From the IMG/VR virus record IMGVR_UViG_3300044647_001247, positions 1 through 64,000 of that record: a stretch of DNA of 64,000 nucleotides. One strand, written 5' to 3'. The notes beneath the pieces are model-generated. The model was not told the DNA's origin, did not search any database, and saw nothing but the letters and a program-made list of their open reading frames with translations. The translations under genes were made by a program, and so were the position numbers. This document shows positions 23,579 to 64,000 of this stretch, in pieces; positions within the stretch are counted from its first letter, which is position 1, and every line of letters begins with the position of its first letter. The stretch comes from a virus.

Positions 23579-26332
23579 ATGCAGTTATATAATGCTCTAG
23601 ATCTAAAAGCTGGTAAAAAAGCTGAACATAAGAAGATGGGTACACTTACCCAGCCAATTCAGTTTTTGCCAGAAAAAGAGAAAGATGATGAATGGAGGTC
23701 TCACAATCTTGACTGGCTAGAGTTCCAAGGAATGAAGCAACTTAGACGTAATGCTCGTAGATTAATGAAAAACTACAAGCTTTCTAAAGGGCTAATTGAC
23801 AAAACAGACTATATTATAGAAGAAGATAATGAGATGGCTGATCTAATAGACACTCTAACTAAAGAGGATGAATCAGCTTTAGAACTCAAATTCTATCCTA
23901 TTATTCCCAACGTAGTAAATGTTCTATGTAACGAGTTTTCTAAGCGTTCTTCTCGTATTATGTTTAAAGCCGTAGATGATATTTCTTATAACGAGATGTT
24001 AGAAGAAAAAAGAGCTATGCTTGAAAACGTCCTTTTACAGGATGCTGAACGTAAGATGATGATGCAAATGCTCAATATGGGAGTGGAGTTAGATAGTGAA
24101 GAAATGCAAAAAGCAACAGCTCCTGATAATTTAAAACAACTTCCTGAGATAGAATCATTCTTTCGTAAAGACTATAGATCAATGATTGAGGAGTGGGCTT
24201 CTCATCAAATGAGTGTAGACGAAGAAAGGTTTAAAATGCAAGAACTTGAAGAACGTGCATTCCGTGACATGCTTATTACAGATCGTGAGTTTTGGCATTT
24301 TAGAATGATGGAAGATGACTATGAGCTAGAACTTTGGAATCCGTTATTAACATTCTATCATAAATCTCCTGATGTACGTTACATTTCCCAGGGAAACTGG
24401 GTAGGTAAGATGGATCTCCTATCTTTACCAGACGTTATTGATAAGTATGGTTGGATGATGACTCAAGAACAATTAGAGTCTTTAGAATCAGTTTATCCTG
24501 TCCGTTCTTCAGGTTATATGATACCAGGTTATCAAAATGATGGAAGTTATTATGACGCTACAAAATCTCATGACTGGAATACACAAATGCCTTCTCTTGC
24601 TTATAGACAACATATGTCTATACATGATAATCAATTTGGTACAGGTGATATTGTAGAATGGATTCTTTCAGATTCTGAAGATGTAGTGGATTTTGGTAAA
24701 TCTCATATGCTTAGAGTTTCCACTATTTATTGGAAGTCTCAACGTAAACTAGGTCATCTTACTAAAATCACAGAAGAAGGTGAAATTATACAAGAAATAA
24801 TTAGTGAAAAATACAAGGTTACAGATAAACCATTGTATAACACAGCTTTATATAAACAAAAGTCTAAAGATAACTTAATATTTGGTGAGCATATAGATTG
24901 GATTTGGATTAATGAAACATGGGGAGGCATTAAGATTGGACCCAATAGACCAGCTTTCTGGGGTCAAAATAATCCAGGAGGTATAAATCCTATCTATTTA
25001 GGACTTAATGGAGGTAAACCAGGACGTATTCCATTTCAGTTTAAAGGTGATAATACATTATATGGTTGTAAGCTTCCTGTAGAAGGAGCAGTATTTGGAG
25101 ACAGAAACTCCCGTAGTACATCTATGGTAGATCTTATGAAACCCTACCAAATTAGCTTTAATATTGTAAACAACCAAATAGCTGATATATTAGTAGATGA
25201 GCTTGGAACAGTTATTCTATTGGATCAAAATTCTCTACCACGTCATTCTATGGGTGAAGATTGGGGAAAGAACAATTTAGCTAAGGCTTATGTAGCTATG
25301 AAGAATTTTCAGATGTTGCCCTTAGACACTTCCATCACTAACACTGAGAATGCATTAAATTTTCAGCATTATCAAGTGTTAAATCTTGAGCAAACAAATC
25401 GTTTACTATCTCGTATTCAACTTGCTACATATTTTAAAAATCAAGCATTTGAAGTGATTGGTTTGAATCCTCAACGTATGGGAGCTCAAATAGCTCAACA
25501 ACAAACAGCTACGGCCGTAGAACAAGCTATGAATGCTAGCTATGCTCAAACAGAACAATACTTTATACAGCATAGTGATAATCTAATGCCTAGAGTTCAT
25601 CAGATGAGAACTGACCTGGCTCAGTATTATCATTCCACTAAACCTAGTGTAAGACTAACATACATCACGTCTAAGGATGAGAAAATGAACTTTGAGATGA
25701 ACGGTACAGACCTTCTTCTTAGAGATCTTAATATATTCTGCACTACTAAAACTAATTCCCGTGCTGTAATGGAGCAGCTTAAACAACTAGCTATTAATAA
25801 TAATACCACCGGAGCTTCTATATACGATCTTGGAAATGTTATTAAATCTGAATCTATAGCTGAACTCACAGGTGTTCTTAAAGCTGCTGAAGAAAAAATG
25901 CTTGCTCAAAAACAACAAGAGCAGCAAATTCAGCAGCAAATGCAGCAAGAACTTATGGCTAGTCAGGAAAAACAAAAACAAATGGATCTTCAAGCTCAGG
26001 CCGATCGTGATGACAAAATGATACAGAAAGACATCACAGTGGCTGAAATACGGGCTGCAGGATATGGTTCAGCTGTAGATATAAATGAAAATAAGCAGTC
26101 TGACTATCAAGATGCTTTAGAAGGGATTAGAAAGCAGGAGAATTATCAAGAGCAAATGAACTTTAAACGTGAGCAAGAAGTAAATAAAACAAGCACTAAT
26201 CAACAAAAACTACAATTAGATAGAGAAAAGTTGCAGGCTCAAAAAGAAATAGCTGACAAGCAATTACAAATTGCTAGAGAAAACAAGAACAAATATGATG
26301 TAAAATCATCTAGTAAAAAGACAGGTAAATAA
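23579..26332 (+). CDS. portal protein (crAss-like)
   Basis: 917 aa after terL; YPIIPNVVNVL, WINETWGGIKIG, GCKLPVEG, SMVDLMKPYQ; long Q-rich C-terminal barrel helix. Confidence 0.9.
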   Translation: MQLYNALDLKAGKKAEHKKMGTLTQPIQFLPEKEKDDEWRSHNLDWLEFQGMKQLRRNARRLMKNYKLSKGLIDKTDYIIEEDNEMADLIDTLTKEDESALELKFYPIIPNVVNVLCNEFSKRSSRIMFKAVDDISYNEMLEEKRAMLENVLLQDAERKMMMQMLNMGVELDSEEMQKATAPDNLKQLPEIESFFRKDYRSMIEEWASHQMSVDEERFKMQELEERAFRDMLITDREFWHFRMMEDDYELELWNPLLTFYHKSPDVRYISQGNWVGKMDLLSLPDVIDKYGWMMTQEQLESLESVYPVRSSGYMIPGYQNDGSYYDATKSHDWNTQMPSLAYRQHMSIHDNQFGTGDIVEWILSDSEDVVDFGKSHMLRVSTIYWKSQRKLGHLTKITEEGEIIQEIISEKYKVTDKPLYNTALYKQKSKDNLIFGEHIDWIWINETWGGIKIGPNRPAFWGQNNPGGINPIYLGLNGGKPGRIPFQFKGDNTLYGCKLPVEGAVFGDRNSRSTSMVDLMKPYQISFNIVNNQIADILVDELGTVILLDQNSLPRHSMGEDWGKNNLAKAYVAMKNFQMLPLDTSITNTENALNFQHYQVLNLEQTNRLLSRIQLATYFKNQAFEVIGLNPQRMGAQIAQQQTATAVEQAMNASYAQTEQYFIQHSDNLMPRVHQMRTDLAQYYHSTKPSVRLTYITSKDEKMNFEMNGTDLLLRDLNIFCTTKTNSRAVMEQLKQLAINNNTTGASIYDLGNVIKSESIAELTGVLKAAEEKMLAQKQQEQQIQQQMQQELMASQEKQKQMDLQAQADRDDKMIQKDITVAEIRAAGYGSAVDINENKQSDYQDALEGIRKQENYQEQMNFKREQEVNKTSTNQQKLQLDREKLQAQKEIADKQLQIARENKNKYDVKSSSKKTGK

Positions 26333-54908: not shown

Positions 54909-55275
54909 CACCTTCAGACGTTGCAGCACAACTATACAGTTTACAACTTATGGATGTAAGCTTGTTATTGCTGTAGTGGATAGTGTTAAAAAAGAGGTGG
55001 AGAAATTATATAAAAAATACAAGATTGATGAGGAATTTGATGATGATGCAGAAGGGGCATTAGTAATGCCTGATATGAAAACTTATTATTTACTTCTAGG
55101 AAAGGCGTTCATCACTCATAACACTATAGCTCATGAAGTGTTTCATGCATCTGTAAGAATTACAGAACATCGTGGAATAACTGATGAAGAAACTCAAGCT
55201 TGGATGGCAGGGCACATTACAGAGATATTATATAAGTTTTTAGAAAAAAAGAAGTTAGAAGTAAAACATGGCTGA
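54865..55275 (+). CDS. zincin metallopeptidase-like protein
   Basis: TIAHEVFH (HEXXH) with downstream EETQAW third ligand. Confidence 0.75.
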   Translation: MDDIIICSNQEKAGNTFRRCSTTIQFTTYGCKLVIAVVDSVKKEVEKLYKKYKIDEEFDDDAEGALVMPDMKTYYLLLGKAFITHNTIAHEVFHASVRITEHRGITDEETQAWMAGHITEILYKFLEKKKLEVKHG

Positions 55276-58200
55276 GCAACAACAAAATCCTGGAGTGATC
55301 ACTAACACCTTTAGTAATGGTATGGTGAAAGACTACAATGAAACATTTGTAGGAGAAGGATTATATACTCATGCTCGCAATGTTGTAAGTAATTCACATG
55401 ATGGTCAGCTTGGTGTAAAAGGTAATGAGCCAGCTAACTTAAGTTGCATCACTCTTCCTTATAGCTTAATAGGATGTATTCATCTTTCTGATGATCAATG
55501 GTCTGTATATACAACAGATGATACTAATTCTGAGATAGGAATATTTGATGAAAGTCAATGCACTTATACAAAGGTGGTAAATGATCCATGTTTAGGATTT
55601 AAAAGATCTAACTTAATTACAGGTGCTTCACGTAAACGTTATGATTGCGATAGACCTGTTTATTGGGTTGATGCACTGAATCCAGATAGATTTATGGATC
55701 TTAGTAATCCCCCTTTTAAATATATAGAAACTATAGTTGATGGTTGTAAAGTAAAAACTATAACACAACCTTTACAGCTTGATTGTGAAAAGATAAGACT
55801 TGCATCTTTAATACAACATCCTTGTTTAATCTTAAATAAAGGAAAAGTTGCAGGAACTTTACCTAATGGTTCTTATCAAGTTGCTATAGCTTACACTGAA
55901 GATGGTGTTAGATTAACCGGGTATATTGGAATATCAGAAGTACAATCATTATTTACACATGAAAATGTTAGTTCTTCTTTAGAACTATCAATTACTACTA
56001 TAGATACAACATTTGACGAATTTGAGTTAGTTGTAATTGGTCGTATTAATGGTACAACAGTAGTTAAAAAAATAGGAAACTACTCAACCTCACAAGGTAA
56101 AATATACATTGACAGGTGGGATCAAGAGTTTGAAACAGTGCCAATTAGTCAAGTGGTATTTAGAGGAGACTCTTCTGAAAAAAGTGATGCTATATACGAA
56201 GTGAATAATTATTTATTAAAAATTGGAGACTATTCAAAGTTTAAATTTAATTATCAAAAACAAGCTAATAATATAAATGTTAGTTGGACAGCTGTTCAAT
56301 ATCCTTCTAATTATTATTTTAAAGGTGGAAATAATACTGGTTATTTAAGAGATGAACAATATTCATTTTTTATAAGATGGGTATACAACACTGGTGAACG
56401 TTCTGAGTCCTATCATATACCTGGAAGAGATGCTCTAGCTAGTGATAGAACTTTAGTAATGGGAGATGATGCTTTTGAAACATCTGGTATAGATTCTATT
56501 ACAAGAGAAAGATGGCAGGTGTATAATACAGCCACTTTAGATAATCTAAATAGTTACACTCTTTCTGATGGAGGGCTTGTTATAGCATCAGGTAAAATGG
56601 GATTTTGGGAAAGCACTGAAAAATATCCAGATAACACTCCTGATATTTGGGGAACATTATGTGGAAAAAACATTAGACATCATAAGATGCCTGATGAAAC
56701 TACAGCTCCATCCTTAAATTTATTTTCAAATAATGGTAAATTTATTAATATTCTTGGAGTTAACTTTAGTAATATAACTCATCCTTTAGACAACCAAGGT
56801 AATCCTATACAGTCAATTGTAGGATATGAATTATTAAGAGGATCTAGAGAAGGTAATAAATCTATTATTGGAAAAGGACTGCTTAATAATATGAGGGAAT
56901 ATTCTATTCCTAATCAAACAACTAAAGGGCTTTTTCAAAATTATCCATACAATGATTTAAGACCAGATCCTTATTTAACAGATTCTCCTAATTTAGATGG
57001 TCAATCTGCATTAAAAGGACAAGCTAATGTTTCCACTTCAAAAATGAGTGGCTATAAAAAGAATATATTTTCATTTCATAGTCCTGATGTAACTTTTTCC
57101 AATCCTTTTTTAAATGCCAATGAACTAACTATTTATCAGGAAGTGTATGGTGAATCTAATGGTAGATTTGTTAATTCTTGGAAACATCCTAAATTTAAAG
57201 TTTTAAGTAATTTTAGTTCAGTTTTCGGAGATGTAGCTTCTATAATAAGCACAGTTCAAACAGCTCTTGGAGCACTTGGAGGAGGTCTTGATTTAAAAAT
57301 TGAAGCTGATAAAGATGCTCCTGTATCAACAGGACTAACTTTAAATCCAAACTATGCTGGAGATACAGTTACTGTTTTTGGTTCAGGTGCCTCACCTTTA
57401 ACTATTGCACAGTTTATTGCAGCAGGTGTTGCAAATGGACTTTTAATAGGTGCGTTGATAGGAACAGGTATTCTACCAGCAATGTATAAACAACAGTATT
57501 TAAGACTTTTTATATATTTAATTCCTAAAAAACAATACTCAGCTCAATATAATTCACATGGTGTTTATGATGGAGGAGCCATACCAAAAAAAATAGGTAA
57601 TAAAAGAAGAAAGATTAAAGAAGCATTATATATAGGAAGTGGAAATAGCCAGTTTAATTCTGACTATTTTGTTAATAACACAGCTAGAAGTAATGTAGTT
57701 GTTTTAGAAACTGAAAAAGATTTGGATGATCCAACCACTACAGACAATAGTAGAGTGACATTAGGTGAAGCAAATAGTAATTTATATCAAAATATTAAAA
57801 CAACTATATCAAGTCACTATGGTGCTTTAAAAATTAGCATACCTTCTCAATATGGTCAATTAGGTGGAATAAAACAATTTCCTATAAATGGAGGTTGTAT
57901 TTTTAACACTACACCTGATAAGACTAAAAAGTTTAATACATCTTCTCCACTTTTTAACGGAGACACTTATATAAATAAATTTACTGAAAAAAACACAATG
58001 TTCTTTTTCACTGATTGGATGATTGGTGAGCCTGATAGAACTGAATGGGATTACACTTTATATATGTATATTCCCTATCCAAGATTTTGGATAAATAATG
58101 TAGAAGAAAATGTAGCTTTTTTAGAAGCAGCTGATAATTATAGATCATTAGATAAAAGAACATCTGGTTTCTTACATGTAAGTTCTGGATATTTTTATTT

Positions 58201-59866
58201 ATTTAATTCTGGTGTTAGAGAGTTTTTTGTTGAAAGTGAGGTTAATTTAGCATATAGAGATTGGGAAGAAGATCCATCTAAGCGTCATTATGATTCTGAT
58301 AGATACACTGATCTTGATAGTATGTTTAGAAGTGACATTATAAAAAGTGGAAACTTTTATAAATATGATTATAACTTAAGTGTATCTAAATTATTTAATT
58401 CTCATATTACTTGGGGAAATATATTAGGTCTTGATTATGATCCTACCACTGCAGAAAAATGTTACGTATATAGACCTAGTAGAGTTAGATATTCTCTTCC
58501 TCAATTTCAAGAATCAAAAAAAGATAACTGGAGAATATATTTAACTAACAATTATAAAGATTTTGACTCTCCTGTAACATCTATAAAATCTGTAAATAAA
58601 ACAGGTGCTTTGTTTATGATGTCAAGACAGAGTCCTATGCAGTTTATGGGTGTAGAAGAACTGAAGCTAGATGGAACGGGTGCTAAAATTACAATAGGTG
58701 ATGGGGGGCTTTTTAATCAACCTTTACAACAAATTGTAAATACCGAAAGTTCTTTTGAGTATGGTTCTTGCCAAAGTAAGTATTGTTCTATTAATACAAT
58801 ACACGGTGTTTTTTGGGTGAGTCAAAATCAGGGAAAGATATTTCAGTATGCTGGACAAATAAAAGAGATATCTAAAAATGGTCTTAAGTGGTGGTTTGCT
58901 AGATATTTACCTAGTGAACTATTAGCAGCGTATCCCACCTATCCTTATTTTGATAACCCGGTAATTGGTGTAGGGGTACAAATAATGTATGACAATACTA
59001 ATGAGATTGTATATATTACTAAGAAAGACTATAAACCACTAAAAACCAATTTGTTATTTGACTCAAAAGGTTTTTATGAAATAAGTTCATCTAATGGTAA
59101 GGTGTACATTCCTTTAACTAACACTAGTTATTTTGAAGATGCTAGCTGGACTATATCATATGATCCAAACGGGAATGATGGTAAAGGTGCTTGGGTTAGT
59201 TTTCATGACTGGATACCTAGCTTTTTAATTCCTGGGAAAGCTCATTTTATGAGTGTCAATCAAAATTCTATATGGAAGCATAATGTAAGATGTGATAAGT
59301 TCTGTAATTTTTATGGTGTAGATTATCCTTTTGAAATTGAGTTTATATCATCTACGGGTCAGCAAGTTGTTTCTATGAGAAACGTAGAGTATATATTAGA
59401 AGCTTATAAAATTCACAATGAATGCAGAGATGAGTTCCATGTATTAGATGCAAACTTTGATCAGGCTATTATATATAATTCAGAACAAGTATCTGGACTT
59501 TTAGAACTAGAACTTAAGAATAAAACCAACCCGGTGGCAATGCTTAGTTATCCTCAGATAAGAGCACAATCTATAGGAATAAACTATTCTAAAGAAGAGC
59601 AAAAGATTAGATTTAATCAATTTTGGGATATAACAAAAGAAAGAGGAGAGTTTGCCCCAAATACAAACATTCCAATGTTTATTACAGAGGCTAATGGATA
59701 TAAGTTTAAAATCAATCCAGCTTATGTAAACTATCAAAAGTCACCATTAGAGCGTAAGAAGTTTCGTCACAATTTAAATAAAGTGTTCTTAAGAAAGTTT
59801 AAAAGTGATGATGTAAAGATGTTATTTAAAATATCTAATCAGAAAATACAACTTAGTCAAAGGTAA
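55268..59866 (+). CDS. tail stabilisation / muzzle protein
   Basis: 1532 aa; NTFSNGMVKD start, GYLRDEQYSF, HHKMPD, WVSFHDW; crAss-like position before the cargo genes. Confidence 0.8.
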   Translation: MAEQQQNPGVITNTFSNGMVKDYNETFVGEGLYTHARNVVSNSHDGQLGVKGNEPANLSCITLPYSLIGCIHLSDDQWSVYTTDDTNSEIGIFDESQCTYTKVVNDPCLGFKRSNLITGASRKRYDCDRPVYWVDALNPDRFMDLSNPPFKYIETIVDGCKVKTITQPLQLDCEKIRLASLIQHPCLILNKGKVAGTLPNGSYQVAIAYTEDGVRLTGYIGISEVQSLFTHENVSSSLELSITTIDTTFDEFELVVIGRINGTTVVKKIGNYSTSQGKIYIDRWDQEFETVPISQVVFRGDSSEKSDAIYEVNNYLLKIGDYSKFKFNYQKQANNINVSWTAVQYPSNYYFKGGNNTGYLRDEQYSFFIRWVYNTGERSESYHIPGRDALASDRTLVMGDDAFETSGIDSITRERWQVYNTATLDNLNSYTLSDGGLVIASGKMGFWESTEKYPDNTPDIWGTLCGKNIRHHKMPDETTAPSLNLFSNNGKFINILGVNFSNITHPLDNQGNPIQSIVGYELLRGSREGNKSIIGKGLLNNMREYSIPNQTTKGLFQNYPYNDLRPDPYLTDSPNLDGQSALKGQANVSTSKMSGYKKNIFSFHSPDVTFSNPFLNANELTIYQEVYGESNGRFVNSWKHPKFKVLSNFSSVFGDVASIISTVQTALGALGGGLDLKIEADKDAPVSTGLTLNPNYAGDTVTVFGSGASPLTIAQFIAAGVANGLLIGALIGTGILPAMYKQQYLRLFIYLIPKKQYSAQYNSHGVYDGGAIPKKIGNKRRKIKEALYIGSGNSQFNSDYFVNNTARSNVVVLETEKDLDDPTTTDNSRVTLGEANSNLYQNIKTTISSHYGALKISIPSQYGQLGGIKQFPINGGCIFNTTPDKTKKFNTSSPLFNGDTYINKFTEKNTMFFFTDWMIGEPDRTEWDYTLYMYIPYPRFWINNVEENVAFLEAADNYRSLDKRTSGFLHVSSGYFYLFNSGVREFFVESEVNLAYRDWEEDPSKRHYDSDRYTDLDSMFRSDIIKSGNFYKYDYNLSVSKLFNSHITWGNILGLDYDPTTAEKCYVYRPSRVRYSLPQFQESKKDNWRIYLTNNYKDFDSPVTSIKSVNKTGALFMMSRQSPMQFMGVEELKLDGTGAKITIGDGGLFNQPLQQIVNTESSFEYGSCQSKYCSINTIHGVFWVSQNQGKIFQYAGQIKEISKNGLKWWFARYLPSELLAAYPTYPYFDNPVIGVGVQIMYDNTNEIVYITKKDYKPLKTNLLFDSKGFYEISSSNGKVYIPLTNTSYFEDASWTISYDPNGNDGKGAWVSFHDWIPSFLIPGKAHFMSVNQNSIWKHNVRCDKFCNFYGVDYPFEIEFISSTGQQVVSMRNVEYILEAYKIHNECRDEFHVLDANFDQAIIYNSEQVSGLLELELKNKTNPVAMLSYPQIRAQSIGINYSKEEQKIRFNQFWDITKERGEFAPNTNIPMFITEANGYKFKINPAYVNYQKSPLERKKFRHNLNKVFLRKFKSDDVKMLFKISNQKIQLSQR

Positions 59867-62811
59867 TGAAACGGACAGATTCTATATTACAGCAGTTTTA
59901 TATGTCTAGGCTTCCTAAAGCTCAGATGGGACTAGCCATATCTGATGGTACAAGGGTGGCACCAAGACCAAAAGCTTTAACTGAAGCTGAATATCAAGAA
60001 AATGAACGTGCTAGAAAAATAACAAAAGAAGGCACTGAAAGACGAAATAAGCAAATTTTAGAAGAAAGACAAAAAGCAAGAAATACAAAAGGTACATTTA
60101 AGGAAAAGAACTTTAACATAGGTGAGAAGTTTAGAATGTTTCCTGGTAGTGTAGGTGGTGCAGGAGAACTCTTTGATGACTATATCAATCCTTTAAAGTT
60201 TGTTGGAGACATGGCTTCAAATCTAGGTAATTCTAGAACACCCCAAGAAGCAGCTCTAAATGTAGCAATGACAGCAGGACTTGGTGCTCTTGGATTTGAC
60301 CCATTAGGTAGTGGATTAAAATCTTCAGCTTTTAAAGAAGCACGTGCATCTTTTCCAAAATTTATAGATGAAGTTTCATATTCTATAAATAAACCTAAGT
60401 CTGTAGAACAAATAACTAATAAGAATTTATATAAAGAATTAGGATCTCCTTTGAATATTTCAGAAGGATTAAATAATCAAGGTGTATTTAGTTTAAAAAG
60501 ATTTCCTGACCATGTTGTAAAATTTGAGCCTGTTGAAACAGTAGGTAGAGGTATTGGTTATCCTGAATATACAAATTTTGATTTTGTAAGTGCTATGAAA
60601 AATATAAAAGATAAACCTAACATAGCAAAGGTTAAAAATCAACTTAATGTAGAAAATAACAAGAGAGCTCTTATAATGAATAGGATTGATGATGGATACC
60701 GTCCTTTAGATCTTAATCCTATCAATTATAGAAAAATGCCAGATGACTCAGTTCGTAAAATGTACTATGACTTAAAAGATGTTATTAACAATGATTTAGG
60801 TTTTGATTTTATGGGTAACAACTACCTATACAATCCTAAAACAAAAGATTTTTCATTATTTGATTTTTCTCCACAATTTAAAGCAGGTAATGATGGTAAT
60901 TCACAATTCTGGATTAATGATGTTTTAGGTAATACTAATAGTAATTTACTTGGTAAAGCTCAAGCTAATAAAAACTTAAAAACAGCAATTATATCTAAGC
61001 TTGTTAATGATCATAGAGTGGCTGGACAAAATTTATTTAAAGAGATTGGTACAGGATATACATTACGAAGTCATGCTGATATTTCAAAACTTCTTGATAA
61101 AGGTGATAAGTTTGCTTTTCAAAAATTTAATAATGCACTTAAAGATGTTGATATATATCAGCAAGGTGGTGTAATAAAAGATGACAGAGGACAATGGGCA
61201 CATCCAGGTAAAGTAACTCGTATATCTAGTCCTAATATAACTATGAAGGGTGTACCCTATCCTGTACTAGGTGTAGGTTCTAATGGTGAAGAACAAATGA
61301 TGTATCCAGGACAAGAATATAATTTTGGTGGTGCATCTTATGTAGATGAATATCCTATGATGAAAAATGGTGGAGAAATGATTAAACGTAAAGATGGTAG
61401 TTATTCTAAAAGAGGACTCTGGGATAACATTAGAGCTAATAAAGGCTCAGGTAAAAAACCTAGTAAAGAAATGCTAGAACAAGAACGTAAAATAAAATCT
61501 AAAGAAATGAAATACGGAGGAACAAATAACTCAGGCTTTGAAGCTTTACCAGAATATGTACAAGCTAAAATATTAGCTAACATGGGATATGGTGGATATT
61601 ATAATCCAATGATGGAAGAAGGTGGTGAACCTAATGGTGGCATGGCACTAGGTCAGATAATGGCTGTTTCAGATAAGATGAATAAGCTTCGTCAGTTTAT
61701 ATCTCCTGATAAAAACTTAGATCCATGGATTGCTTCTAAGCTTGCAGTTATGGATGATAGTGCAGATGCTATTGCTAATTATATGATGTACAATCCTGAA
61801 GCTCAGGGTGATGAAGAAGAAATCTCACAAATGAGTAGAGGAGGATATGTTGTAAGTAGAAGTAGTGCACGTAAGGGTAAGACACATAAAGTGACAGGTC
61901 CTGATGGAACTGTTAAATACTTTGGTGATTCTAAGTTAGGACAGCATCCTGATGATCCTGAAAGAAAAAAAGCATTCTATGCTCGTCATAAAAAGAATTT
62001 AGATTCTAATCCATATTTTAGAGCCTTTGCTAAAGAAACATGGCAGCAGGGTGGACAACCTGGTTTATCATTTTGGAATGCTAGTAAAACTCCACAAGGT
62101 GCTGTTACACCTACAGGAATGTCAAATTATTTTAATGATAATAAACAAGGTTTTGATCAAGCAAATTTTACTAAAAAGATGCAGGAGTTAAATCTTGATA
62201 CATCAAGTAATGTATCATTACAACAAGATATGATGAAAAAATATCCTGATCTTGTAAATCAAGTGATGTCTGAATATGGTGATACAAATGCAGGTAGATT
62301 TGATGATGGTATTATAGGAGCTAGAGTTATTAATGCTGCTAGTAAAATTCCTACTCAAACTAAACAAGTTCCTCCTCAAATACAACAATCAATGGCACCT
62401 CCTCCTGCTACATATAAAAATCCAAATGCAGGATATGTAGTTAATGTAAGAGGAGATGATAATGACGGAGCTTATTATTTTCCTAGCTCTGAAAACTTTG
62501 ACAAACTTAGTTCAGCAATACCTGGTGGTAAAGAATACAGAGATGGTTATAAAGGAGCAACAGTTAATATGACTAATGCAAACTTTATGAAACAATACGG
62601 AAACAACTACAAAGAAGCACTAGGTCAAGCATACAAACGTAATCCACAAAATCCTGAGCAGTATATTCCAATGCAAAGAAATGGAGGATCTACTTGGTCT
62701 GGTAATAACTGGTATCAAAATGGAGGTTTAGTAAATGGTGCAGAAATGGAAGTGACACCTGAACAAGCTGAGATGTTACGTCAACAAGGTTATGAATTTG
62801 AAATAATTTAA
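59866..62811 (+). CDS. putative virion cargo polyprotein with kinase-like domain and repeated [MFYW]xxGG motifs
   Basis: Position after the muzzle gene; eight motif copies delimit small modules; kinase-like signature at ~60440-60880. Confidence 0.75.
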   Translation: MKRTDSILQQFYMSRLPKAQMGLAISDGTRVAPRPKALTEAEYQENERARKITKEGTERRNKQILEERQKARNTKGTFKEKNFNIGEKFRMFPGSVGGAGELFDDYINPLKFVGDMASNLGNSRTPQEAALNVAMTAGLGALGFDPLGSGLKSSAFKEARASFPKFIDEVSYSINKPKSVEQITNKNLYKELGSPLNISEGLNNQGVFSLKRFPDHVVKFEPVETVGRGIGYPEYTNFDFVSAMKNIKDKPNIAKVKNQLNVENNKRALIMNRIDDGYRPLDLNPINYRKMPDDSVRKMYYDLKDVINNDLGFDFMGNNYLYNPKTKDFSLFDFSPQFKAGNDGNSQFWINDVLGNTNSNLLGKAQANKNLKTAIISKLVNDHRVAGQNLFKEIGTGYTLRSHADISKLLDKGDKFAFQKFNNALKDVDIYQQGGVIKDDRGQWAHPGKVTRISSPNITMKGVPYPVLGVGSNGEEQMMYPGQEYNFGGASYVDEYPMMKNGGEMIKRKDGSYSKRGLWDNIRANKGSGKKPSKEMLEQERKIKSKEMKYGGTNNSGFEALPEYVQAKILANMGYGGYYNPMMEEGGEPNGGMALGQIMAVSDKMNKLRQFISPDKNLDPWIASKLAVMDDSADAIANYMMYNPEAQGDEEEISQMSRGGYVVSRSSARKGKTHKVTGPDGTVKYFGDSKLGQHPDDPERKKAFYARHKKNLDSNPYFRAFAKETWQQGGQPGLSFWNASKTPQGAVTPTGMSNYFNDNKQGFDQANFTKKMQELNLDTSSNVSLQQDMMKKYPDLVNQVMSEYGDTNAGRFDDGIIGARVINAASKIPTQTKQVPPQIQQSMAPPPATYKNPNAGYVVNVRGDDNDGAYYFPSSENFDKLSSAIPGGKEYRDGYKGATVNMTNANFMKQYGNNYKEALGQAYKRNPQNPEQYIPMQRNGGSTWSGNNWYQNGGLVNGAEMEVTPEQAEMLRQQGYEFEII

Positions 62812-62815
62812 TATT

Positions 62816-64000
62816 ATGAAAATACGCATTACAAAAAAAGGATTGCCTAAAGCACAATGGCAAAATAGTCAAATACCAGGAGGTCAAGCTATTAATCCAA
62901 GAAAAGTAGCAGGAAAGGAAAACTTGACCTCTTGGAATGTTTTTGATAATGCACCACAGCAAGGTGTTCCTACACAATTTATTGATCCTCAATCAGTTGT
63001 AAACACAGAACGTAATGTTTGGAATTATAGTCCCTATCGTAATAGTCAAGGTGAAAGTATAACAGGTGATGAGTATTATAATCAATTTTGGACTCCTCCT
63101 AACACTCCTGCAAAAACTGCTCCTAATATAAATAAAAAATCTACTTATAAAAAAACAAATAACTTTAATGATTATTTTGCTGCAGGAGCAATGACATTAA
63201 ATGCTTTAGATAATAGACAAACTGATAAGGAGTTGGAAGCTTCTTGGCGGAATGGTCTTATTAGTCCTGGTATTATTGATTATTCTCAAAACAGAGGAGA
63301 TTATGAAATGAACACTGGTATGGTAGACCCTTATAATACAGGAGCAAAAAACAAAGGACAATTTACTAATTCTTTTTATACTTCACAGTTTCAAGAAGGT
63401 GGTATATTTACACTAAATGAGGTGCAACAAGCTATATTACCTAATATGTTATCGGTAGCTTATGAAAGAAACACACCTGCATCAACATATGTTAATCCAC
63501 CTAATAATTCATTAAAAATAGATTACACAGATGCTGCTGATTTTATTAAATCACAGGAAGGATTTATACCAAAAGCAAAATGGGACTATGCTCAATATAG
63601 TGTAGGATATGGCACAAAAGCTAAAAATAAGAATGAAGTTATTTCTAAAGAAGAAGCTGAAAATAGATTAAAATTAGAACTTGCTCCTGTAATGGAAAAA
63701 ATACAGAGCAAGCTTAAAGTTCCTATTAATTCAGGTCAACTTATAGCTCTTGCTTCTATAAATTATAATACAGGTTCTTTAGCAAATAAATTAATTGATA
63801 GAATTAATAAGGGTGAAAGTCCTGACATTATAGCAAATACTATTAAAAGCATGGCATTAACTGGTGTGGGTAGTAATAAAATATTACCGGGATTAGTTAA
63901 ACGTAGGAATGAAGAAGCTGGCTTATTTTTACGTGGTTATGAAAATGGTGGTGAAAATACAGAAATTATGAAAATACGTATTACAAATTCTCCTGAGAAA
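62816..64000 (+). CDS. putative virion cargo protein with GH24 lysozyme domain (partial; runs off the window, absent from ORF track)
   Basis: Open for 395 codons from the ATG at 62816; IKSQEGF..WDYAQYSVGYGT..LASINYNTG..LPGLVKRRNEEAGLF, flanked by FQEGG and YENGG. Confidence 0.85.
   Translation, partial: MKIRITKKGLPKAQWQNSQIPGGQAINPRKVAGKENLTSWNVFDNAPQQGVPTQFIDPQSVVNTERNVWNYSPYRNSQGESITGDEYYNQFWTPPNTPAKTAPNINKKSTYKKTNNFNDYFAAGAMTLNALDNRQTDKELEASWRNGLISPGIIDYSQNRGDYEMNTGMVDPYNTGAKNKGQFTNSFYTSQFQEGGIFTLNEVQQAILPNMLSVAYERNTPASTYVNPPNNSLKIDYTDAADFIKSQEGFIPKAKWDYAQYSVGYGTKAKNKNEVISKEEAENRLKLELAPVMEKIQSKLKVPINSGQLIALASINYNTGSLANKLIDRINKGESPDIIANTIKSMALTGVGSNKILPGLVKRRNEEAGLFLRGYENGGENTEIMKIRITNSPEK

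Follow-up and report, generated by a model that had tools for sequence, protein, structure and literature searches.

A Kinase-Like Domain in a Phage Multi-Module Protein

The window considered here is the whole analysed stretch of viral DNA, 64,000 nucleotides long, and covers positions 1 to 64,000 of the IMG/VR virus record IMGVR_UViG_3300044647_001247, which in full comprises 109,819 bp. Close to its end lies the gene for P0001, a large multi-module protein, one part of which carries the motifs, and is predicted to adopt the fold, of the protein-kinase-like (PKL) superfamily. The open reading frame (ORF) and the features of its kinase-like part are listed below, with residues numbered along P0001:

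59866 to 62811, plus strand: P0001, multi-module protein of 981 residues, encoded by one ORF
60388 to 61155, plus strand: protein-kinase-like domain (residues ~175-430), with the N-lobe strands beta1-beta5, the catalytic core and four C-lobe helices
60457 to 60495, plus strand: Gly-rich loop between beta1 and beta2, ISEGLNNQGVFSL (residues 198-210); family motif G201-x2-N204-x-G206-[VI]-[FY]
60508 to 60522, plus strand: DHVVK (residues 215-219), in-frame motif
60520 to 60528, plus strand: K219-x-E221 in strand beta3, placed by alignment and model
60670 to 60690, plus strand: LIMNRID (residues 269-275), hinge-like motif
60799 to 60831, plus strand: GFDFMGNNYLY (residues 312-322), catalytic-loop-like motif
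60805 to 60822, plus strand: catalytic loop D314-F-M-G317-N-N319 (D-x4-N); the loop reads L-G-F-D and has no HRD His/Arg
60853 to 60870, plus strand: SLFDFS (residues 330-335), DFG-like motif
60862 to 60873, plus strand: DFG-equivalent D333-F-S-P336; family motif D-[ILF]-x-P
61156 to 61170, plus strand: YQQGG (residues 431-435), first GG or boundary motif, from a motif search

An initial annotation, made from the letters of the window, had proposed a kinase-like domain at 60440-60880. The five motifs that it named are all in frame, occur in kinase order and lie within the ORF, and the domain ends, as it had suggested, before the first GG motif (at residue ~430, with YQQGG following at 431-435). 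The boundaries needed revision: the flagged span does contain the N-lobe and the catalytic core, but the folded domain is larger (60388-61155) and includes ~90 further residues of C-lobe helices.

A phmmer search with residues 90-455 of P0001 against 1.8 billion cluster representatives returned 153 matches, which fall into three separately mobile modules: a Gly-rich module (residues ~87-156), the kinase-like domain (~175-430), over which ~45 of the matches lie, and the GG motif together with the part that follows it. Conservation was counted in an alignment of 43 relatives of the kinase-like domain that share 21-42% identity. Five residues, G201, K219, G277, D314 and D333, are present in every sequence (43/43); G317 is kept in 42, N204 and G206 in 41, P336 in 40 and E221 in 39 of the 43, while N319 is kept in 39 sequences and the other four have the Asn shifted one residue later. 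Because the motif set recurs in ~45 distant relatives with invariant catalytic positions, it exceeds what chance would produce, and the Lys, Asp, Asn and Asp singled out by the initial annotation thus proved to be the positions under the strongest constraint in the alignment. The same counts bear on the idea that the domain could be a pseudokinase or a structural scaffold within the virion. Its motifs are divergent and catalysis is predicted from sequence and model; however, the invariance of K219, D314 and D333 across sequences as dissimilar as these points to selection on catalysis, and a catalytically inert domain seems extremely improbable.

Predicted Fold and Active Site

An AlphaFold2 model of residues 170-435, computed with the family alignment, has a mean predicted local distance difference test score (pLDDT) of 93.1 and a predicted template modeling score (pTM) of 0.90. 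Along the chain, the model passes through beta1, the Gly-rich loop, beta2, beta3 with K219, short helices, beta4, beta5 (RALIMN), the hinge and two helices, and continues with a short strand (beta6), the D314-x4-N319 loop, beta7, beta8, D333, a further short strand (beta9) and four helices that reach to residue ~425. In model numbering, K219 falls within strand 47-53 and D333 between strands 159-162 and 165-167. From D333 to the next helix there are ~10 residues, which implies that the domain has no activation loop.

Comparison with known structures placed this model among the kinases. Foldseek found at least 500 matches for it in the PDB at E<=1e-3 (best 3.7e-6), and those listed are kinases throughout. 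The best 50 matches of VIA-align, for which a library of 48,161 representative chains was used, are likewise exclusively kinases, with Z scores of 8.3-10.1 and ~200 residues aligned; they include PknS (Z 10.0, root mean square deviation (rmsd) 5.3, 198 residues aligned), Rad53 (Z 9.9), Rio2 of A. fulgidus (PDB 1tqi; Z 9.7, rmsd 3.9 A, 176 residues aligned, 16% identity) and NleH1 (Z 8.5, rmsd 4.2, 155/160 residues aligned), the last with a score that is tied with those of many other kinases. Re-ranking the Foldseek list by VIA-align yielded the same kinase-only picture among the matches listed, and in the viral structure library BFVD the best 50 matches are kinases wherever they are named, none of them close. 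The match to a PKL fold, on which the initial annotation had made its proposal depend, was thus found. The residues that it expected to form an active site, K219, D314, N319 and D333, are placed by topology and alignment in the model at the beta3 Lys, the catalytic loop and the DFG equivalent. Judged from the model, the domain very probably has the fold of a kinase together with a competent active site, in which K219 would bind the phosphates of ATP, D314 would serve as the catalytic base, and N319 and D333 would hold Mg2+.

A kinase fold may nonetheless be put to other uses. Among the effectors that bacteria inject, several have a kinase fold and perform AMPylation- or glutamylation-type chemistry, and this precedent, together with the atypical motifs of the P0001 domain (K-x-E in beta3, no HRD, and D-x-x-P in the place of DFG), would accord with a SelO-like or SidJ-like activity. 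However, the canonical D-x4-N and the Mg-binding Asp are intact and have kinase-like spacing, and no SelO or SidJ chain occurs among the Foldseek and VIA-align matches listed. Chemistry of this kind is therefore considered improbable.

Relationship to Kinase Families and Substrate Class

When the family profile was compared with PDB sequences, the type III effector kinases OspG, NleH2 and NleH1 ranked first, though at weak E values of 0.2-0.3 and with ~14% identity. In the profile alignment, D314 and N319 fall on the catalytic-loop D/N of NleH/OspG, and D333 falls on the Asp of the PID motif; catalytic-loop D/N and PID are the motifs that define the NleH/OspG family (10.1101/2020.12.11.418251). 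Among the nearest named language-model clusters of the ESM Atlas, OspG_kinase is the closest, accompanied by YrbL, APH and ABC1/RIO1, all of which are to be taken as leads only.

Two assignments were considered and rejected. The domain is not a canonical Hanks kinase (PF00069), as it has no Pfam match, no HRD, DFG or APE motif and no activation segment. Nor does it belong to the T7 gp0.7 (T7K) family: there is no kinase PHROG match, the motif is D-x-x-P instead of DPV, and the gene lies in a late structural operon. T7-like phage proteins are absent from the best 50 matches in BFVD, and the Pfam family RIO1 gave no match at E<=1.

Further searches recovered little. With the protein as query, Pfam (E<=1), PHROGs and PDB sequences yielded nothing over the kinase-like stretch, and a word-indexed homologue search returned P0001's own fragment only. 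Neither the kinase domain alone nor P0003 retrieved a related locus from IMG/VR, and a family-alignment search of GTDB species genomes, which used a single pattern and has low sensitivity, found no locus. The hidden Markov model (HMM) of the kinase matches just two other fetched viral loci, L005 and L028. Since no model of either Pfam or PHROGs matched, annotation based on these libraries would leave the domain “hypothetical.”

The structural and profile neighbors also bear on what the enzyme might phosphorylate. Were it a PKL enzyme for small molecules, lipids or sugars (APH, Kdo/WaaP or ABC1-like), its target would be a metabolite, a nucleotide signal or a precursor of the envelope, and not a protein. 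In keeping with such a function, the model has no activation loop and no substrate-binding GHI subdomain, APH, ABC1/RIO1 and YrbL are among the nearest language-model clusters, again as leads only, and Rio2 is in the top structural matches. However, the best 50 VIA-align matches and the Foldseek matches listed are protein kinases or Rio2, with no APH, choline or Kdo kinase among them, and the best sequence-profile matches, OspG and NleH, are protein kinases. A small-molecule enzyme is accordingly regarded as unlikely, and a protein substrate is slightly favored over a small molecule.

A Constant Module and Apparently Exchangeable Neighbors

Outside the kinase-like domain, P0001 contains two further modules, and its gene is flanked by two others in the same orientation:

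60124 to 60333, plus strand: Gly-rich, weakly hydrophobic module (residues 87-156), with the pattern DDYINP...G.MA..LG...GLGALG; present in 100 of 164 fetched proteins
61171 to 61383, plus strand: constant all-beta module of ~70 residues (436-506), with the pattern GQWAHPG...ITMxGVxYP...YVDEYPMM and xxGG at both sides
55268 to 59866, plus strand: upstream virion structural protein of 1532 residues, a homologue of Cellulophaga phage phi4:1 gp042, which was found in virions by tandem mass spectrometry (MS/MS)
62816 to 64000, plus strand: start of a downstream protein of 1045 residues, with a phage-lysozyme domain and further GG motifs; it continues beyond the window

The Gly-rich module is independently mobile, occurring mostly in proteins without the kinase and at varying positions; its hydrophobic stretch (residues 129-147) has a mean Kyte-Doolittle value of 1.19 and gave no confident transmembrane helix. 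The constant module is 54-75% identical to the equivalent modules of related phages, in which the neighboring modules are different ones. An HMM built from it (P0001 residues 436-506) matches the protein that follows the ~1530-residue virion gene in all 22 of 22 related IMG/VR loci, with E values of 1e-30 to 1e-37 (synteny was checked in eight of these loci), and it also matches the N-terminus of Cellulophaga phage phi4:1 gp040 (E 2.7e-10). The module is modeled as a small all-beta structure with a pLDDT of 66, and no convincing structural neighbor was found for it, the best match (Z 5.0) being a generic beta-sandwich or cupin-like fold.

Outside the constant module, the proteins that occupy the same slot in related loci are variable and range from 800 to 2051 residues. 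One of them (L009:7598-11506) has an ADP-ribosyltransferase (ART) exoenzyme domain (ADPrib_exo_Tox, E 2e-9) in the place of the kinase, and another (L016:8267-14419) has Amidase_2 and LysM domains there. This slot of the genome appears, from these sequences, to hold exchangeable effector modules. The kinase-like domain itself is similarly mobile: the proteins that bear it are 364-2575 residues long, and its position along them varies between the neighborhood of the N-terminus and the C-terminus. [FYL]xxGG stands directly at the end of the kinase module, or within ~20 residues of it, in about two thirds of the relatives, and in those without an adjoining [FYL]xxGG the domain is mostly at or near the C-terminus of the protein. 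About half of the kinase-bearing proteins also contain the constant module. An HExxH motif (e.g., AHEISHA) in the kinase-bearing homologues P0006 and P0008 hints at a zincin-like peptidase module, SET domains occur in two other relatives (Pfam E 1e-6), and DUF5872 occurs in four.

Two short stretches at the ends of P0001 were noted by eye or as weak matches. LPKAQ occurs ~10-16 residues from the N-terminus in both P0001 (59866-59940) and the 1045-residue protein downstream (62816-62870), and a similar [FV]PxAQ[MT]G is present in the homologues P0004 and P0070; this LPKAQ-type motif may be a common signal for processing or for addressing. The C-terminal ~20 residues of P0001, EMEVTPEQAEMLRQQGYEFEII (window 62740-62808), match DUF7210 weakly (E 0.19), and a similar tail also ends P0018, a homologue of unrelated length.

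Genome Setting and Probable Virion Association

The genes of the 109,819-bp record include those for a terminase, a portal, a major capsid protein and a tail fiber. The portal shows distant likeness to the portals of crAss-like, Flavobacterium and Cellulophaga phages, and on the basis of sequence the virus, a phage of ~110 kb, would be a distant relative of the crAss-like and the Cellulophaga/Flavobacterium phages. For the portal (window 23579-26332), the best cultured relative is the cyanobacterial phage Lbo-JY46 of Leptolyngbya, with 33% identity, and most of the others belong to phages that infect Bacteroidota or to crAss-like phages at ~22%; since the matches are split in this way, the host assignment is uncertain. 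After the 1045-residue lysozyme-domain protein come ORFs of 1000, 1103, ~3834 and 2193 residues (G000 66010-90416). None of these four very large ORFs has a PHROG match, and their sole Pfam match is a marginal PD-(D/E)XK in the last, 2193-residue one. The layout of this run of large ORFs resembles the block of giant virion or cargo genes of crAss-like phages.

Three observations argue, indirectly, for the carriage of P0001 in the particle. The ATG of its gene overlaps the TAA stop of the 1532-residue virion-protein gene that precedes it (TAATG), its constant module is common to phi4:1 gp040, and ART and amidase domains occupy the same slot in related phages. In phi4:1, the MS/MS-based annotation lists gp042 and the next four genes (gp041 to gp038) without exception as virion proteins, so that P0001 shares its one constant module, by the HMM match to gp040, with a virion protein that was detected by MS/MS. 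Virion carriage of P0001 is, on this evidence from homologues and gene order, considered likely, and the constant ~70-residue module is a candidate for the anchor by which the protein would be loaded.

A competent kinase might, however, act without being injected, late in the infected cell or in the assembling particle, for example on structural or cargo proteins of the phage. The position of the gene within the late structural operon would suit such a role, and the ejection of P0001 is itself a proposal. Against a late role of this kind stand the constant module, which is common to an MS-verified virion protein, and the ART and cell-wall amidase found in the same slot in related phages, both of which are classic injected or entry functions; a kinase that stays behind is judged to be quite unlikely.

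Comparison With Known Systems

Kinase-superfamily (Ser/Thr/Tyr) domains have been predicted before in the polyvalent proteins of phages (Iyer, Burroughs, Anand, de Souza and Aravind, 2017, J Bacteriol; PMC5512222). The clade described there comes from phages and prophages whose hosts are Verrucomicrobia-Chlamydia and Bacteroidetes, and its members were predicted to be packaged, injected and to act in the manner of the T7 kinase; they are described as having lost the whole C-terminal subdomain, an insert separates their conserved His...Asp, and strand 2 is preceded by a Glu (PMC5512222). The P0001 domain resembles them in being embedded in a large multi-domain protein that is encoded among virion genes, and in its family ART, peptidoglycan hydrolase, SET and zincin-like modules are found either in one protein with it or at the equivalent slot. 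In apparent contrast to the clade as it is described, the P0001 family keeps ~90 residues of C-lobe helices; the model helices at residues 344-425 lie in the aligned range of kinase C-lobes, and an activation loop is lacking. The family also differs in its conserved residues: no column of the 43-sequence alignment has His as the majority residue, and there is no conserved Glu before beta2, the sole conserved Glu in the domain being E221, two residues past the beta3 Lys K219.

Among cellular and effector kinases, NleH1, NleH2 and OspG (PDB 4lrj, 4lrk, 4o96; PF22303) are likewise minimal kinases without an activation loop, and they are injected into a target cell, as is presumed for P0001. They are, however, type III effectors, delivered by a type III system and not by a phage particle, and the P0001 domain has extra C-terminal helices. 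The RIO kinases share the compact kinase core without an activation loop; the P0001 domain differs from them in having neither the RIO-specific N-terminal winged helix nor the flexible loop.

Two phage proteins offer functional parallels. The T7 kinase disarms defense systems by promiscuous phosphorylation (PMC13645617). T7K (gp0.7) is, like the P0001 domain, a phage-encoded kinase with a non-canonical substitute for DFG, and it serves host takeover and broad anti-defense (PMC13645617), but it is an early product that is not packaged and that combines a shut-off domain with a DPV motif, whereas the gene for P0001 lies in a late structural operon. T4 Alt is a packaged ADP-ribosyltransferase that resides in the head, is injected with the DNA and modifies the host, and relatives of P0001 carry an ART in the same slot; its fold and chemistry are unlike those of the kinase-like domain. 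No report of a phage kinase in virions or among the cargo proteins of crAss-like phages was found in the literature.

A Virion-Borne Kinase as the Favored Interpretation

Taken as a whole, the reading that we favor, and consider fairly probable, is that residues ~175-430 of P0001 constitute a minimal, active PKL-superfamily kinase, which is one cassette of a virion protein, is injected and phosphorylates host proteins. The kinase-like domain would probably be one of several swappable enzymes that are carried in the particle and injected with the DNA. P0001 would be made late and translated together with the structural proteins; the constant 70-residue module would be its most plausible means of entering the particle, from which it would be ejected into the cell along with the DNA. 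As the kinase requires ATP, it would work only in the cytoplasm, where it would use host ATP and phosphorylate host proteins, or co-injected phage proteins, ahead of phage gene expression. The GG joints may be cleavage sites in this process. A role in takeover or anti-defense is a tentative assignment, somewhat short of an even chance. Of this picture, the fold, the conservation and the gene context come directly from the analysis; carriage, ejection, activity and targets are inferred.

Several observations weigh against this interpretation. Pfam PF00069 (Pkinase), PF22303 (OspG_kinase) and PF10707 (YrbL) had no match at E<=10 in a six-frame search of the genome, and, apart from the constant module, which was found by HMM, tblastn of P0001 against 50,697 GenBank phage records gave no match. 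The HRD and DFG motifs are absent from the domain, and no conserved helix Glu (the alphaC Glu) is identifiable in the 43-sequence alignment. Rio2 among the structural neighbors, and APH and ABC1/RIO1 among the nearest clusters, make the substrate class less certain. Finally, the members of the family are known from sequence and model, from which both their presence in virions and their activity are predicted.

A more elaborate version of the favored interpretation, which we regard as unlikely in its full form, would have a dedicated payload slot: the anchor would load the protein, the [FY]xxGG joints would be cut, and interchangeable enzymes (kinase, ART, SET methyltransferase, amidase) would be released, whereupon the pre-made kinase would hit host defense or transcription proteins ahead of the first phage gene product, in a pre-emptive, virion-borne parallel to the anti-defense use of the T7 kinase.

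Significance

As the concept of kinase domains in polyvalent virion proteins of phages was already predicted in 2017 (PMC5512222), the advance lies in a well-defined new family and in the context of its delivery. By its model, the family represents a previously unannotated minimal kinase fold with an intact predicted active site, and, at ~260 residues and with clear putative catalytic residues, it provides a compact test case. The finding that the T7 kinase counters host defenses (PMC13645617) makes a virion-borne kinase topical: the T7 kinase must be expressed first, whereas a particle-borne kinase, if this interpretation is true, would act from the moment of entry.

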